Assembly (NCBI GenBank): GCA_018056375.1
Contig: JAGPFQ010000001.1
Coordinates: 247,361 to 311,360 of the forward strand
Reading direction: 5' to 3'
DNA length: 64,000 bases
DNA from: Candidatus Dojkabacteria bacterium
Lineage (GTDB): Bacteria > Patescibacteriota > Dojkabacteria > SC72
Below the pieces are notes generated by a model. It ran no database searches. It was not told where the DNA came from and saw nothing but the letters and a program-made list of their open reading frames with translations. The number at the start of each line of letters is the position of its first letter. The stretch's first letter is position 1. Shown piece after piece: positions 54,080 to 60,573 of this stretch. A program made the position numbers and the translations under genes.

Positions 54080-56971
54080 TTAATTAATCCCTACCCCTAT
54101 CTTCACACCCATAACCTCTATCTCTTCATCTGTTGTTATATCATCCATCTCAACACTCTTTGCATGGAACTCTGGCAAGTTCTCATCAACATATTTTTGG
54201 ATAAGATTCTTTGTATCTTTCTCCTCTATCTTAATATGAAGAGTTACCATATCATCAACTTTCAAACCTTTCTTCTTTCTTAAATCCTTGTATCTTCTCA
54301 TAAATTCATTAACAAAAGCCTCATTCTTTAATTCATCTGTTAAATTACAATCAATTGTAACAAAATTACTACCCTCACCTTCTGTGTTCATTCCTTCTCC
54401 TTTCTCAGCTTTCTCAGAGAAGAATATCTCCTTAACATTAATCTCTTCCTTAACAATCTCTCTTAACTCCCCATCTTTAATATTCACAAAAGCTTTAGAA
54501 AGAGGTTGTCTTAAATTCAATCTAACATTCTCTCTAACCTTTAAACCATATGATGCAATATCTCTTACTCTCTGCATATCTTCAAGTATTTTAGATTCAA
54601 TTTCATCTTCATTAACGGTAGGATAATCATCTAAATGTACAGACTCTACACTCTCCATACTCATATTTACAACAAGATTCTGATACATCTCCTCTGCTAT
54701 GAAAGGTGTAAATGGAGCTAAAAGTTTAGAAAGAGTAACTAAACTGTAATGAAGTGTACCAATTGCATCACTATCTCCACTCTTAAACCTGTTTCTTGAC
54801 CTTCTGATATACCACTGTGAGAGGTCTTTACAATATTCCTCAATATCTCTTGAAGCAGTAGCCATATTGTATTCATCTAAACACTTGTTAACCTTAAATA
54901 CTAAATCATTTGTTTTAGCTACCATCCATTTATCCATCAAATGTGTTAGTTTCTTGACATCATATTTCTTCCAATCCCAATCATGTAACTTAGCATATGT
55001 TACAAAGTAGTTGTATGAATTCCAAAGCTGAATGTAGAATCTTCTCCTCACTTCTTCCAAAGTTCCCCATCCAAACCTCATATTCGAACCAATAGATGCT
55101 GTTGCATAGTTCCATCTTAAAATATCAGAACCCATCTTGTCTGCTGCATCATCAAACTTTACATAGTTAGGTTTAGTCTTACTCATCTTCTCATTCTTCT
55201 CATCTCTAACCTCTGCAAAACACATTACTTCTTTGTATGGTGCTTTCTTCTCAAAAACAACACCAAATACAAGCATTGAGTAGAACCACAACCTAATCTG
55301 CTCTATCATCTCAATTACTAATTCTGCTGGGAACCATTTCTCCCAATATTTCTTGTCATCAAGATATGCAAGCGTAGAGAAAGGTACAACTCCTGCATCA
55401 AGCCAACAGTCTCCTACATCTGTTACTCTCTGTACACTCTCACCACACTTAGGACATTTAATCTCAATTTCATCAATCCAAGGTCTGTGAACATCATGAA
55501 GTTTCTCTACCAACTCTGGTTTTACTGCCAACTCTTTCAGTTCTTCTAAACTACCTACTACATGAAGATGACCACACTTCTCACATTCATAGAAAGGAAG
55601 GGCTAAACCGTAAAATCTCTTTCTACTAATCATCCAATTACCCATACTATCTAACCAACCTTGCATTCTCTTACCTGCATAGTCTGGTAACCAATTAACA
55701 TCTTTTGCTGCTTCTTTAAGTTCATCTTTAATCTTTAGTACATCAATGAACCAGTTATCTTCTAACTTAAACAAACACTTTGTATTACATCTCCAACAGT
55801 GAGGATAGCTATGAGTAAAATCTTCTGTTTTGTACAAAAGACCTTGCTTCTTTAGATCTTCAATTACTTCATCTGCTACATCATGTGCATATTTACCATC
55901 TAAGAATCCAAAACCTTCTGTAAAATGACCTGTGGAATCAAGAGGTGAGATAATGTCTGCACCTAACTGCTGACCTAGTTCAAAGTCTTCCTGACCACAA
56001 CCTGGTGCAATATGTACAACACCTGACCCTGTCTTTGAATCAACCAAATCCCACTCAACAATACTATGCTTAATGCCCTTCTGTGCAGGAATATCTAAGA
56101 GAGATTCATACTCTTTACCAACTAATTCCTTAATATCTATCTCTTCAATATCATTCAAACCTAATCGTTTAGCACTATCTGCACCTAAATATACTGTTTT
56201 ATCATCAATTTTTGTCTTTACATATCCTAATTCTGGATTTACAGCTAAAAGAACATTAGATGAGAGAGTCCAAGGAGTAGTTGTCCATGCTAGAACATAT
56301 TCCTCTTTTTTATCCTTATTCTTCAACTTAAAGAATACATACACCGATTTATCTGCTATCTCTTTATATCCATCTGCTTGTTCATGTTGAGAGAGTCCTG
56401 TCTCACATCTTGGACACCATGTTGTTGCTGACCTATCTTTGTACAAGAGTCCTTTCTCATGACAAAGTTGAAGGAATTTCCAAATATACAAGTTATTAGT
56501 CTTAGACATTGTATAGTAGCTATTCTCCCAATCCATGAACATTCCTAATCTCTTAGATTGTTCTGTCTGAACACCAGCATATTTGTTTACCCTAGCCATA
56601 CATTGGTTTGTGAAGTTGTCTAGACCATAGTCTTGAATATCTTTCTTACAATTAAAACCTAAATCTCTCTCTACACCTACCTCAACCCAGAGTCCTTGGC
56701 AGTCAAAACCATTTTGGAACCTTTGTTCAAATCCTTGCATATTCTTAAATCTCTGGACAATATCTTTGTATGTCCTCCCCCATGCATGATGTACTCCCAT
56801 TGGATTGTTTGCAGTAATTGGTCCATCTATGAAAGAGAAGTGTTTTTCTGCTCCTCTATTTCTTTCAACATATTTTTTTTCAATATCATTATCTTCCCAG
56901 AACTTCATAATATCTTTTTCCATCTGTACAAAGTCTTGGTTTGGTTTTACTGGTTTAAGGTTTTTACTCAT
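54080..56971 (-). CDS. ileS: Isoleucine-tRNA ligase.
   Basis: Class I HIGH variant PMGVHHAWG. KMSKS variant EKMSKTK. CP1 editing domain. Zn-finger WCPRCET...CEKCGH. 963 aa. A T-box upstream has an AUC specifier candidate. Confidence 0.8.
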   Translation of the reverse strand: MSKNLKPVKPNQDFVQMEKDIMKFWEDNDIEKKYVERNRGAEKHFSFIDGPITANNPMGVHHAWGRTYKDIVQRFKNMQGFEQRFQNGFDCQGLWVEVGVERDLGFNCKKDIQDYGLDNFTNQCMARVNKYAGVQTEQSKRLGMFMDWENSYYTMSKTNNLYIWKFLQLCHEKGLLYKDRSATTWCPRCETGLSQHEQADGYKEIADKSVYVFFKLKNKDKKEEYVLAWTTTPWTLSSNVLLAVNPELGYVKTKIDDKTVYLGADSAKRLGLNDIEEIDIKELVGKEYESLLDIPAQKGIKHSIVEWDLVDSKTGSGVVHIAPGCGQEDFELGQQLGADIISPLDSTGHFTEGFGFLDGKYAHDVADEVIEDLKKQGLLYKTEDFTHSYPHCWRCNTKCLFKLEDNWFIDVLKIKDELKEAAKDVNWLPDYAGKRMQGWLDSMGNWMISRKRFYGLALPFYECEKCGHLHVVGSLEELKELAVKPELVEKLHDVHRPWIDEIEIKCPKCGESVQRVTDVGDCWLDAGVVPFSTLAYLDDKKYWEKWFPAELVIEMIEQIRLWFYSMLVFGVVFEKKAPYKEVMCFAEVRDEKNEKMSKTKPNYVKFDDAADKMGSDILRWNYATASIGSNMRFGWGTLEEVRRRFYIQLWNSYNYFVTYAKLHDWDWKKYDVKKLTHLMDKWMVAKTNDLVFKVNKCLDEYNMATASRDIEEYCKDLSQWYIRRSRNRFKSGDSDAIGTLHYSLVTLSKLLAPFTPFIAEEMYQNLVVNMSMESVESVHLDDYPTVNEDEIESKILEDMQRVRDIASYGLKVRENVRLNLRQPLSKAFVNIKDGELREIVKEEINVKEIFFSEKAEKGEGMNTEGEGSNFVTIDCNLTDELKNEAFVNEFMRRYKDLRKKKGLKVDDMVTLHIKIEEKDTKNLIQKYVDENLPEFHAKSVEMDDITTDEEIEVMGVKIGVGIN

Positions 56972-57022
56972 ACAATCTTTTATTTAATTTATTTCTTTTT
57001 TATTTCTAAAATATATATTAAC

Positions 57023-57098
57023 AAAAAACCCCTTGTATTTACTAAAAGAGTTATACAATATGTTTTAGAGTTGTATATCTTTTAATATCTACAAGGGG
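57023..57098 (-). terminator. Rho-independent terminator or attenuator of the ileS T-box leader.
   Basis: 9-bp inverted repeat ccccttgta / tacaagggg (57029-57037 and 57090-57098) followed on the minus strand by TTTTTTGTT. Confidence 0.6.
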
Positions 57099-57240
57099 CG
57101 AATGTATCGCGGTACCACCCTATTTTAGAATACTATTTCTAATATTCTCTTAGAACCTACTGTTAGGTTTAGGATTCTACTAAATATATTTTTATATATT
57201 AAATATATCTTTCTTTCCTCACTCACCAGTGATAGCTGGG
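57023..57240 (-). promoter_or_regulatory. T-box riboswitch leader for ileS. It has a T-box/antiterminator sequence and an intrinsic terminator hairpin plus U-tract immediately upstream of the ileS start codon.
   Basis: Minus-strand AAUAGGGUGGUACCGCGAUACAUUCGCCCCU is the canonical T-box. The UGGUACC bulge is flanked by GGG/CCC and GCG/CGC helices. The overlapping terminator CCCCUUGUA...UACAAGGGG is followed by UUUUUUGUU. An AUC-A candidate specifier lies in a small hairpin at 57230-57233. Confidence 0.7.
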
Positions 57241-57307
57241 TCAATGTGTTGGTTGATTATATCATAGAAATAGTTAAAGAGAATTATTCGAATCCCTGGA
57301 AGTTTTT

Positions 57308-58675
57308 CTACATGAGATTATATAAATCTTTTAACTTCCATACATCTGGGCTCTTTGTATTAACTAAATCTAATATCTCCTTTCTAATTTCAGGTGGACA
57401 AGAATAACGAGGTACTGTCATTTCCTCAAAATCAATCGTTTCAACATATAGAGGACTGTTTGGATCATCATTTTCAGAAACTGTAAACTTTATTAAATCA
57501 ATAAAATCTTTATACTCTCCTTTGACAAGTCTTGTTAAGTAATAGGTATTTCCCCAACCATTATACGCTATACTTCTGTGTAGTATAAACATACCATCTT
57601 CATGGTTAATATATGTAGCAATCAAAGGGATGTATTCCTTCTCTTCTGCACGTCCTCTTGCAATAAACCTTTCAGCAAGATCTACTTCTTCTATCTGTTT
57701 GTTTATTCGCTCTTTGAAATCTTTAAAGTTACGTATTATGAGTTTCTGGAAACCTTCATTCCTAGCTACTTCTTTAATAATTTCATCTCTTTCTTCAATA
57801 GTTAATGAAGGTATTTTTAAATCTAAAGATTTCATATACTCTATGGTTTTACTGATAATTCCTCCTTCTACTCTTTTACTTGCTGTGTTGTAATCTTCCA
57901 AAGGAAAAGGTTCAAATACATATTCATCTTCTGGTGGAAGTGGAAGAAAATCTTGATCACTAGTTTCTACATCATAAGTAAGAGTGGGTTGTGCATTTTG
58001 AGTTAAGTAATCCACATCTAGAACTTCTTGTGTGTCTTCATCAAAAGAATCACCTGGTAAGCGATTTGCTCTAAGAAGACATCTATATGCAGCAATTAAA
58101 TGCTTTGAGATTTTAGGACCTCTAAAGAACTTACCTAGAAGAGACAACATCTCTCTAGAACCCCTATATCTAACAGGTTTCCTTTTAAATGGATTTCCCT
58201 TACTTTCATATGTATCTATTACAACCATCTCCCCGTCTTCTACAGTAAGATTAAATCTCGCCATCCCCACAGCCTTCATGCCATCTTCAACTCTAGTAAG
58301 GTATACAAGATCTCCAAACACCTCATCATTATCATCTTGATTTAAGGAACGATGAAGAACGATTGTACCAAACCATTTATCTTTTACAGCTGCAACTGGA
58401 ACAAATCTTTGATAAAACTCACCTTCTGGACAGAGATCTTTCTCAGCATCAACTACAGCCATTTGTTGATGCTGTATCACCTCTACAATCCCTTCTTCAT
58501 CCTTTACATTATCAAAACCGCCAAACTCTTCAATAGCTTTAATTACAGAAAGAGGTTCTGAGATGTTAAGTTGAGCAATAAAGGGATCTCTTTGTTCTTC
58601 TGGAGGTCCATCATATCCACCATCTCTTAGAAAATCATCAAAACTTGACTGTATTTCTGTCATGCATATAGACAA
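57308..58675 (-). CDS. Hypothetical acidic protein.
   Basis: ORF only. Confidence 0.3.
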   Translation of the reverse strand: MSICMTEIQSSFDDFLRDGGYDGPPEEQRDPFIAQLNISEPLSVIKAIEEFGGFDNVKDEEGIVEVIQHQQMAVVDAEKDLCPEGEFYQRFVPVAAVKDKWFGTIVLHRSLNQDDNDEVFGDLVYLTRVEDGMKAVGMARFNLTVEDGEMVVIDTYESKGNPFKRKPVRYRGSREMLSLLGKFFRGPKISKHLIAAYRCLLRANRLPGDSFDEDTQEVLDVDYLTQNAQPTLTYDVETSDQDFLPLPPEDEYVFEPFPLEDYNTASKRVEGGIISKTIEYMKSLDLKIPSLTIEERDEIIKEVARNEGFQKLIIRNFKDFKERINKQIEEVDLAERFIARGRAEEKEYIPLIATYINHEDGMFILHRSIAYNGWGNTYYLTRLVKGEYKDFIDLIKFTVSENDDPNSPLYVETIDFEEMTVPRYSCPPEIRKEILDLVNTKSPDVWKLKDLYNLM

Positions 58676-58686
58676 ATCAAATAATC

Positions 58687-58757
58687 TTGCCGGACCTAGA
58701 TTCGAACTAGGATTAACGGTTCCAGAGACCGTCGTCCTACCATTAGACGATCCGGCA
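58687..58757 (-). tRNA. tRNA-Gln(CUG).
   Basis: Acceptor is TGCCGGA/TCCGGCA (U1-A72 as in bacterial tRNA-Gln). Anticodon loop is CTCTGGA. T-loop is TTCGAAT. Confidence 0.8.
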
Positions 58758-58893: not shown

Positions 58894-60573
58894 CTATTTC
58901 ATAACCTCCTCAGCATACTTTTCCAATCTCTGAACCACTTTTTCTTTACCTAAAACATTCATAACCTGATAGAGATCAGGACTCTGTGTCTTCTTAGTAA
59001 TAGCTACTCTAAGAACCATAGCTATATCCCCTACTGTACCCTTGTACTTCTCTCTGTTAGCTTCATACTCCTTCCTATCTGAACAAAAACCTAATTCTTC
59101 ACCTAACCTCTTAACATTATCAAACCAAACAGTACTATTATCATCAGGATTGTATATATCAATATATTTTTTGACTATCTCATTCTGAACATCTTTCTCT
59201 ACCCTACCTGATATATCCTCATAGCTATCCTCATCAAAGAATCTATCAAAAAATATTCTTAACTGCTCCTTACTATCCTTAAACTTAACCATATCCTTTC
59301 TAATCTTCTGTCCACTTCTTTCAATATTAAAGATATTAATACAGTATTCCTTGTTCTCTTCTAAAAGCTTAGCTACTTCCTCATCGTATTCCCTTGCCCA
59401 ATTAAGAGATCTGTCATATACCTCTTCTGCAGAAAGAGTTGCAATGTAGTCTTTACAAATATCTTCAAGCTTAACAATATCAAACAATGCACCTGCCTTG
59501 TTAAACTTCTCTAACTTTAATTGGAATTCATTAGTATCTGCATCTGGATTCTGTATCCTCCAATCATAGAAGTTTGAATTGGCTAATGTAAGGAAATATT
59601 CAATAATGGCTTCATTAGGATATCCATTCTCTATGTAATATTGTACATCTGCTTCAGGATCTTTCCTCTTACTAAGCTTTCTCTTACTCTTCCCCTCATT
59701 ATCTAACTTCATTAAAGGTGCTGGATGTGCATACTCTATCTGTTTAAATCCTAACTTTTGGAAAAGTTCATAATGAATTGGAACAGATGCAAACCACTCC
59801 TCTGTTCTAATAACTAAGGTTATACCCATTAATGTATCATCAATTGGATGAGCAAAATGATAGGTAGGAAAACCATCAGATTTAAGTAAAACAATATCCA
59901 TATCATTCTCTCTAAGTGTAAATCTACCCTTTATCCTATCTGTCATCTCAAATGACTTATCAATATCACCTGTTGAAGACAACCTAATTACAAAAGGTTT
60001 GTTTGCTTTAATTTCTTTCTCAATATCCTCAACAGTTGCATTCCTCCATTTAGCCCAGTCACCGTAGTAGCCGGTTCTAACTCCTAATTCTTCTTGCTTT
60101 TCTCTAATCTCTGCTAATTCCTCATCTGTAATGAAACAAGGATATGCAGTACCTTTCTCTACCATATCTTTTGCAAAGACTTTGTAGATATCTAACCTCT
60201 GACTTTGGATATATGGTCCATATTCACCAACCTGCTCTGTTTCATTAATTGGACCTTCATCAAATTCAATACCAAAACCCTTAAGTCCATTAACAATCAA
60301 AGAAATACCACCTTCTACCTCCCTCTTCTTGTCTGTATCCTCTATTCTTAAAATTGCAATTCCATTACTCTGTCTTGCTAACTTTACTCCAACCATGCTG
60401 GTGTACACAGAGCCCGTATGCAAAAAACCCGTTGGGCTGGGAGCAAATCTTAGAACCATTGCTCCTTCTGGTAGATTTCTTTTAGGATATTTCTTAAAGA
60501 TATCATCAACTGTTTCCTTTACATTAGGAAAAAGTAAATTAGCTATCTGTATATTTTCATCTTTTGTTCGCAT
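58894..60573 (-). CDS. gltX: Glutamate-tRNA ligase, probably non-discriminating.
   Basis: RFAPSPTGFLHTG is the HIGH region. LRIEDTD. GTAYPCF. DGFPTYHF. KLSKR. Long C-terminal domain. Confidence 0.85.
   Translation of the reverse strand: MRTKDENIQIANLLFPNVKETVDDIFKKYPKRNLPEGAMVLRFAPSPTGFLHTGSVYTSMVGVKLARQSNGIAILRIEDTDKKREVEGGISLIVNGLKGFGIEFDEGPINETEQVGEYGPYIQSQRLDIYKVFAKDMVEKGTAYPCFITDEELAEIREKQEELGVRTGYYGDWAKWRNATVEDIEKEIKANKPFVIRLSSTGDIDKSFEMTDRIKGRFTLRENDMDIVLLKSDGFPTYHFAHPIDDTLMGITLVIRTEEWFASVPIHYELFQKLGFKQIEYAHPAPLMKLDNEGKSKRKLSKRKDPEADVQYYIENGYPNEAIIEYFLTLANSNFYDWRIQNPDADTNEFQLKLEKFNKAGALFDIVKLEDICKDYIATLSAEEVYDRSLNWAREYDEEVAKLLEENKEYCINIFNIERSGQKIRKDMVKFKDSKEQLRIFFDRFFDEDSYEDISGRVEKDVQNEIVKKYIDIYNPDDNSTVWFDNVKRLGEELGFCSDRKEYEANREKYKGTVGDIAMVLRVAITKKTQSPDLYQVMNVLGKEKVVQRLEKYAEEVMK

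Follow-up and report, generated by a model that had tools for sequence, protein, structure and literature searches.

How is ileS, the gene encoding isoleucyl-tRNA synthetase (IleRS), controlled in a bacterium of the Candidate Phyla Radiation (CPR)? The question is raised by a 64-kb stretch of contig JAGPFQ010000001.1 (hereafter the window, meaning the whole stretch of DNA that was analysed), in which a T-box leader lies at 57249..57023 on the minus strand, in front of ileS. The original prediction for this locus had described a textbook T-box riboswitch that controls ileS through a mutually exclusive antiterminator and terminator and that carries an AUC specifier. A match to the T-box covariance model, 23 orthologous leaders and the covariation among them all point to such control, and we consider it very likely that a tRNAIle-specific T-box riboswitch controls ileS by transcription attenuation in Dojkabacteria (WS6, CPR). 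The element is not a textbook case, however. Its Stem I is ultrashort, with 6 nucleotides (nt) in the place of 76 model positions, the platform for binding the elbow of the tRNA is lacking, and the clade of the window is also without the IIA/B pseudoknot.

The gap upstream of ileS contains a T-box leader

The minus-strand gap between the upstream open reading frame (ORF; 57308-58675, with its stop at 57308) and the ileS ATG at 56971 measures 336 nt, exactly as predicted. The regulated gene itself (54080-56971, minus strand) encodes a protein of 963 amino acids (aa), an IleRS of the type with a C-terminal DUF5915 domain. Its identity is supported by TIGR00392 (718 bits versus a cutoff of 621) and by the Pfam families tRNA-synt_1, Anticodon_1 and DUF5915. 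The presence of a T-box had been taken as a lineage clue towards Firmicutes and Actinobacteria, which did not hold. The closest named homologues of the IleRS belong to Candidatus Dojkabacteria or candidate division WS6, followed by other Patescibacteria. Moreover, a species-representative genome of Candidatus Dojkabacteria (L001) encodes an IleRS that is 94% identical and carries a leader that is nearly identical to that of the window, in which the G+C content is 31-36%. The Dojkabacteria are placed among the bacterial candidate phyla by NCBI. Judged by these similarities, the host lineage is Candidatus Dojkabacteria/WS6 within the CPR, and neither Firmicutes nor Actinobacteria.

The T-box sequence that had been claimed, AAUAGGGUGGUACCGCG, was found at 57124..57108 on the minus strand, the strand on which all leader features described below are located. 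The 13-nt T-box core GGGTGGTACCGCG occurs once in the window, with an expectation from shuffled sequences of 0.01 even when two mismatches are allowed. Conserved T-boxes carry the sequence AGGGUGGNACCGCG as a 7-nt bulge between the helices A1 and A2, and the corresponding sequence in the window is AGGGUGGUACCGCG at 57121..57108. In addition, the fold of the leader was more stable than that of 200 out of 200 shuffled sequences (z = −5.6).

A scan with the Rfam T-box model RF00230 had been proposed as a check, and its outcome depended on the threshold. At the Rfam gathering score no T-box was reported in the window, only nine tRNAs. When RF00230 was scored permissively, the region 57253..57091 matched over the full model length with 49.7 bits (E-values of 5.5e-10 for the leader and 7e-08 for the whole window), and the leader was the sole T-box in the 64 kb. 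In this alignment the 3′ half, which comprises Stem III, the T-box and the antiterminator, follows the consensus nearly base for base. In the 5′ part, 6 nt stand for 76 consensus positions of Stem I, of which the UGA/GAG base is kept; the low score is due to this collapse of Stem I.

The gathering score is also a strict criterion for T-boxes with a long Stem I. As controls we used the ileS loci of Chloroflexota and Bacillota with a clear T-box core (among L014, L017 and L022-L074; Rfam 15 threshold), and only 3 of these 19 long-Stem-I ileS T-boxes reached the gathering score, while 16 were missed. The other members of the Dojkabacteria family scored 30-55 bits with RF00230, all under the gathering score. 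We conclude that the absence at the gathering score is a threshold effect and not a true absence of a T-box. Threshold-based annotation under-calls T-boxes in Chloroflexota and Bacillota as well. As the original prediction rightly stated, the element escapes ORF-based pipelines, and it is likewise overlooked by Rfam at the gathering score.

To compare the leader with those of related bacteria, ileS loci were collected from species-representative genomes, from metagenomes and by exact protein look-up. After removal of duplicates, the set consisted of 23 distinct leaders from loci whose IleRS are 53-98% identical. The element was present at every locus with a Dojkabacteria-like IleRS in this range of identity. 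The bulges of L082-L086, L092, L094 and L095 read UGGUAAC or UGGUAUC and fall outside the TGGNACC motif. A screen with that motif had left these loci without a T-box, a reading which was ruled out by their bulges.

The antiterminator and the terminator are mutually exclusive

The antiterminator extends over 57094..57121, or leader positions 129-156 when window position 57249 is numbered 1. It is composed of helix A1 (AGGG/CCCU), the 7-nt T-box bulge UGGUACC (57117..57111) and helix A2 (GCG/CGC) with the loop AUACAUU, so that the bulge is flanked by the GGG/CCC and GCG-AUACAUU-CGC helices that had been proposed, the first of them extended by one pair. The terminal pair of A2 next to the bulge (57110/57098, G140-C152; alignment columns 222/256) is G-C in 18 of the 23 leaders, G·U in three and A-U in two.

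An intrinsic terminator overlaps the antiterminator. It is located at 57099..57023 and consists of CCCCUUGUA...UACAAGGGG followed by UUUUUU, with the hairpin at 57099..57029 (positions 151-221) and the U6 tract at 57028..57023 (positions 222-227). The 5′ arm of the hairpin reuses the 3′ strands of A2 and A1 (6-nt overlap). Folding confirmed these alternative structures, with −7.3 kcal/mol for the isolated antiterminator of the window versus −29.9 kcal/mol for the terminator hairpin; across the orthologues the isolated antiterminator has −6 to −10 kcal/mol. The U-tract ends 51 nt before the ileS AUG, in good agreement with the predicted distance of about 50 nt, and the hairpin contains no Shine-Dalgarno sequence. 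A generic terminator scan did not list this long terminator, whose loop or stem lies beyond the limits of the scan.

The same arrangement was found in all 23 leaders. Each has a hairpin of −25 to −35 kcal/mol after the T-box, which shares at least 4 nt with the antiterminator and runs directly into a tract of U4-U9. The start codon is located 20-52 nt past the U-tract, behind an AU-rich spacer. A terminator that is mutually exclusive with the antiterminator, the hallmark of canonical class I T-boxes, is thus present in the window and in 23 of 23 orthologues. The Shine-Dalgarno sequestration platform of the ultrashort class was not found, as none of the 23 leaders has a Shine-Dalgarno sequence in the hairpin. 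As far as can be read from these sequences, the logic of the expression platform is transcription attenuation and not Shine-Dalgarno sequestration.

The distance from the bulge to the U-tract is 57-100 nt (median 71) in the Dojkabacteria leaders versus approximately 37-47 nt in ileS T-boxes with a long Stem I, the folding energies being similar. This longer distance may widen the decision window and act as a kinetic compensation. Alternatively, it may simply follow from the 33% G+C of the genome, in which AU-rich stems have to be longer.

A promoter at the base of an ultrashort Stem I that presents AUC

Directly upstream of the leader, an extended −10 promoter, TGATATAAT, was read from the sequence at 57264..57256, ending 6 nt before position 1. 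In most of the 23 leaders the motif TGnTATAAT or a near variant is located 4-8 nt upstream of the kink-turn (K-turn), the distance being 10-16 nt in L124, L130 and L131. A generic promoter scan did not list the extended −10 promoter, since a −35 match is lacking. Transcription is predicted to start at about leader position 1 (57249). Because the conserved promoter lies directly upstream, the RNA would begin at the base of Stem I. A longer Stem I built with upstream RNA, which we had considered, was ruled out for the same reason.

Stem I spans 57220..57248 (positions 2-30). Its 29 nt form the K-turn, a 4-bp helix and a 6-nt apical loop. The K-turn (GA motif) at the base of the stem, CAC-AUU-GA...GA-GUG, has the C-stem CAC/GUG, the bulge AUU, the pairs G8·A27 and A9·G26, and C10·U25; it is degenerate in L133. 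On top of it, the small hairpin CCAG-CUAUCA-CUGG consists of the helix CCAG/CUGG, closed by CUAUCA as the apical specifier loop; the loop presents AUC-A, as originally described. The specifier, the isoleucine codon AUC (positions 17-19) followed by the purine A (position 20), is located at 57230..57233. A17, U18 and C19 are invariant in 23 of the 23 aligned leaders, with A or G as the following base. We infer that AUC pairs with the GAU anticodon of tRNAIle. The distal elbow-binding platform of a long Stem I is absent from the window leader. A short Stem I that carries the specifier in its apical loop and has no elbow platform corresponds to the ultrashort, or class II, type of T-box.

The leader at L131:1251-1477 has a Stem I with a short distal hairpin (CUGGCACUGCCAG) located 5′ of a GUAUCA specifier. 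This Stem I is an intermediate between the internal-loop and the apical-loop layouts, and suggests that the truncation arose within the lineage. We also considered that an ultrashort Stem I merely accompanies this type of IleRS. This was rejected, since long Stem I's are found at the loci of Chloroflexota and Bacillota whose IleRS is next-nearest.

Stem II, the pseudoknot region and Stem III

Stem II follows directly at 57171..57219 (positions 31-79) and is made up of the basal helix AGGA/UCCU, an S-turn and a variable AU-rich upper hairpin. In the S-turn, GAA at 57213..57211 (G37, A38 and A39) is opposite to AGUAGAA at 57181..57175 (A69, G70, U71, A72, G73, A74 and A75). Among the aligned leaders there is no variation at U71, A72 and A74, and next to none at A69 and G70. 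The basal helix occurs as AGGA/UCCU, CGGA/UCCG, GGGA/UCCC, UGGA/UCCA or CAG/CUG. The position of this stem and its S-turn purine string next to Stem I is a further feature that the leader shares with the ultrashort class.

In the clade of the window, Stem II is directly followed by an AACC...GGUU hairpin at 57154..57169 (positions 81-96), the loop of which is not conserved. At the same site, distant members carry the IIA/B pseudoknot and then the same hairpin. By hand parse, the pseudoknot was present in 12 distant members, where 36 of 36 cells of IIA and 35 of 36 cells of IIB are paired, with seven distinct IIB combinations.

Stem III is located at 57127..57151 (stem and loop at positions 102-123). 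It has a GAAA loop, the purine string AAGAG (RRRxG) on its 5′ side and AA on its 3′ side, which corresponds to the RRRxG-Stem III-AA motif as defined previously (PMC7583486). In the alignment of the leaders, UAAGnGA is conserved. The leader at L127:1009-1181, in which Stem II runs nearly straight into the T-box and both the IIA/B pseudoknot and Stem III are missing, is the most reduced member that we have seen, with 173 nt including the terminator.

The helices of the leader covary

It had been proposed that orthologous ileS leaders should carry a conserved Stem I. This proved to be the case in the 23 leaders, in which AUC is invariant and both the K-turn C-stem and the Stem I helix covary. 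Covariation was measured on a MAFFT alignment that is blind to structure (A2), with 500 shuffles and five measures. In the named helices 91.3% of the cells were paired, versus 35-59% when the partners were slid by 1-3 columns. Twelve of the 18 pairs change on both sides, and on none of the five measures did any of the 500 shuffles reach the observed value. The tested structure was derived from one of the aligned sequences, which favours it over the slid versions.

Changes on both sides were found in all three pairs of the K-turn C-stem and in three of the four pairs of the Stem I helix, and 93-95% of the cells of these two helices are paired. In the basal helix of Stem II, three of four pairs change on both sides and 72% of the cells are paired, some rows being misaligned by MAFFT. 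A1 and A2 are paired in 100% of the cells in the 23 leaders, with changes on both sides in three pairs. Swaps of the whole Stem I helix, which are independent of the structure bias, occur in L124 (CCGG/CCGG), L129 (GAAG/CUUC), L130 (AGAG/CUCU) and L132 (GGAG/CUCC). When no structure was given, RNAalifold recovered only the Stem I helix and a slipped antiterminator helix, because the variable middle region is poorly aligned.

Furthermore, we built a covariance model (R1) from the 23 Dojkabacteria leaders. R1 gave full-length matches of 71-155 bits in Dojkabacteria-type loci only, and one match in the window. On the ileS loci of Shapirobacteria-like bacteria, WWE3 and other CPR lineages, R1 found no T-box, either with default filters or filter-free (all at most 8.9 bits). 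The loci of Chloroflexota and Bacillota gave partial matches to the 3′ domain of 16-25 bits. Among the CPR ileS loci examined, only those of Dojkabacteria carry the element. The whole family is missed by ORF callers and at the Rfam gathering score, and is detected cleanly by R1.

In L129:672-1200 and L130:950-1500 the T-box precedes a small DUF1232 gene that is located directly upstream of ileS. In these two loci the riboswitch probably controls a two-gene unit formed by the DUF1232 gene and ileS.

Proposed mechanism and alternative explanations

The sequence elements with their conservation and covariation, the two folds that compete and the promoter position can be combined into a mechanism, in which the binding of the tRNA, the sensing of its charging state and the regulatory outcome are the steps that we deduce. 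Transcription would start at the extended −10 promoter just upstream of the K-turn. The apical loop of the ultrashort Stem I would then offer the AUC codon to the GAU anticodon of tRNAIle, and the purines of the Stem II S-turn are expected to clamp the codon-anticodon helix, by analogy with the actinobacterial ileS T-boxes. A platform on which the elbow of the tRNA could dock is absent. Farther downstream, the T-box bulge would engage together with the RRRxG-Stem III-AA element, its UGGU pairing with the free ACCA-3′ end of an uncharged tRNA. An uncharged tRNA would in this way stabilise the weak antiterminator, and RNA polymerase would read through into ileS. With charged tRNAIle the antiterminator would not be stabilised, so that the much stronger terminator would form and transcription would end in the U-tract, 51 nt short of the start codon.

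Several observations weigh against control of ileS by a tRNAIle-sensing T-box. The RF00230 score of 49.7 bits is below the curated gathering score of 93. No gene for tRNAIle turned up either in the window or among 30 related loci, and the GAU anticodon and A73 of the host tRNAIle are assumed from what is generally known of bacterial tRNAIle. The IIA/B pseudoknot, to which the positioning of Stem II is ascribed, was not detected by hand parse in the clade of the window (11 leaders, IleRS at least 74% identical). The G·U wobble at the end of A2 has been described as the primary steric sensor of the aminoacyl group (PMC7583486), and G-C replaces this sensor pair in 18 of the 23 leaders. Finally, transcriptional T-boxes are held to need the elbow platform for fast capture of the tRNA (PMC7583486), and the window leader is without it.

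Some of these points would also be explained if the leader were a decaying relic, which has lost the Stem I platform (and, in this clade, the pseudoknot) and remains as a leaky constitutive terminator or a plain 5′ untranslated region without tRNA sensing. The missing platform, the missing IIA/B in the clade of the window, the loss of both IIA/B and Stem III in L127 and the change of the sensor pair from G·U to G-C in most members would fit such a decay. However, AUC, the S-turn purines, the T-box bulge and both competing folds are kept down to 53% IleRS identity, and compensatory changes occur in every helix. Because a decaying element would not retain an invariant specifier and a covarying K-turn, we consider a relic unlikely. 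Translational control like that of the actinobacterial ultrashort ileS T-boxes, in which an alternative helix hides or exposes the ribosome-binding site, would agree with the decoding module, as the combination of an ultrashort Stem I and a Stem II S-turn is of the type that the literature ties to translation (PMC7583486, PMC7778990, PMC11297988). Against this, the alternative hairpin is directly followed by U4-U9 in 23 of 23 leaders, with 20-52 nt left to the start codon. This stretch is AU-rich, and no Shine-Dalgarno sequence is present within or beside the hairpin, which makes a translational mechanism very improbable.

It might also be argued that only the hairpin and the U-tract are functional, as a terminator or insulator of upstream transcription, and that the likeness to a T-box is incidental. 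A strong hairpin with a U-tract in an intergenic gap downstream of a gene on the same strand would suit this role. Nevertheless, the upstream gene is separated from the element by a conserved promoter, and the element is also present in L125-L127, where the gene upstream is encoded on the opposite strand. By chance, the exact T-box core would be expected 0.01 times per window, and the match to the full-length model is significant, so that an incidental likeness is hardly conceivable. A leader-peptide attenuator was rejected as well, since the gap has only short, unconserved ORFs that start with TTG. We therefore retain tRNAIle-dependent transcription attenuation as the best explanation for this leader.

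Genes around the leader

The 64-kb window contains nine tRNA genes, which are single or paired (Lys, Gly x2, Thr, Leu, Glu, Phe, Asn and Gln), and a second synthetase gene, gltX (58894-60573, minus strand), which is without a T-box. The ORF directly upstream of the leader (57308-58675, minus strand) encodes 455 aa that match no Pfam or NCBIfam family, and it appears to be composite. Its residues 1-206 are 73-76% identical to a short ORF at the same position in L001, L081 and L101, and its residues 206-455 are 56% identical to the ORF at this position in L097, with a weak similarity (24%) in L082-L085. A conserved tRNA-Gln(CUG) gene (58687-58757) is found at a spacing of 650 to 1370 nt from the leader among close relatives.

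Comparison with known T-box classes

Taking sequence, folds and conservation together, the architecture is a hybrid of two recognised T-box classes that is conserved across Dojkabacteria. The decoding half resembles the ultrashort-Stem-I T-boxes of Actinobacteria (Mycobacterium tuberculosis, Mycobacterium smegmatis and Nocardia farcinica; 'class II' in TBDB), which control the same gene, ileS, and are represented by the structures 6UFG, 6UFH and 6UFM (as cited in PMC7583486). This comparison rests on published descriptions, the aligned loci being those of other phyla. Both types present AUC-A in the apical loop of a short helix above a K-turn, both are without the elbow-binding distal platform, and both have a discriminator with a UGGN bulge. 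Moreover, the GAA/AGUAGA purine string of the Stem II S-turn of N. farcinica ileS (PMC7583486) is matched in the window leader, at nearly equal positions (AUC 16-18, A38, A39 and A69-A71 in N. farcinica; AUC 17-19, A38, A39 and A72-A74 in the window). The two types differ in their host, which is a CPR lineage here and Actinobacteria for the known ultrashort type, and in the IIA/B pseudoknot, which the clade of the window does not have. They also differ in the expression platform. In 23 of 23 Dojkabacteria leaders it is an intrinsic terminator with a U-tract, whereas the ultrashort type described in the literature works by Shine-Dalgarno sequestration.

In the literature, a long Stem I with a platform is tied to transcriptional T-boxes and an ultrashort Stem I to the translational actinobacterial ileS T-boxes (PMC7583486, PMC7778990, PMC11297988), and this link is explained by the need to capture the tRNA before RNA polymerase reaches the terminator. 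In TBDB, the search for the truncated class was confined to Actinobacteria and to class I matches (PMC7778990). Full-text literature searches for T-boxes together with CPR or Patescibacteria returned no report. In reviews, TBDB and full-text searches, a coverage that leaves out key primary papers, no terminator-type ultrashort T-box was reported. Some precedent for terminator-type ultrashort T-boxes may exist; the abstract of a 2015 study by Sherwood reportedly predicts translational control for many, not all, of the atypical actinobacterial leaders. With this reserve, it is possible, and we put it forward only tentatively, that the Dojkabacteria ileS leaders are the first T-boxes recognised in the CPR and a natural transcription-terminating class without an elbow platform, which in the clade of the window also lacks IIA/B and the G·U sensor pair.

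If this is true, the leaders conflict with the view that co-transcriptional T-boxes require the platform for fast capture of the tRNA. The kinetic demand would then be met otherwise, for instance by a slow polymerase, by long terminators that widen the decision window, by a high tRNA concentration or by a protein helper. A conserved family of leaders with covarying helices, in which an ultrashort Stem I is combined with an intrinsic terminator, provides a natural test of the kinetic argument, and a very small transcriptional tRNA sensor (about 155 nt) could be of use in engineering. The family also widens the range of T-boxes to the CPR. The element is a useful marker, and it hints at a relation of Dojkabacteria to the Gram-positive-type phyla in which T-boxes are used, or at gene exchange with them.

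The regulatory half of the leader is that of the canonical transcriptional T-boxes (RF00230; ileS of Bacillota and of Chloroflexota/Thermomicrobia). In these, Stem I measures approximately 90-100 nt, the specifier is placed in an internal loop, and distal AG-bulge and terminal-loop motifs stack on the tRNA elbow. The long Stem I of class I with its interdigitated T-loop platform is not present in the window, where Stem I has 29 nt. In addition, the canonical ileS leaders of Chloroflexota and Bacillota that were compared have G·U at the end of A2, whereas most Dojkabacteria leaders have G-C. A further system for comparison is the glycine (glyQS) T-box. Both glyQS and the Dojkabacteria element are minimalised transcriptional T-boxes in which a part of the standard architecture is lost, but the parts differ: in glyQS the long Stem I and its elbow platform are retained and Stem II and IIA/B are gone (PMC11297988), whereas in the Dojkabacteria element Stem II is retained and the platform of Stem I is gone.

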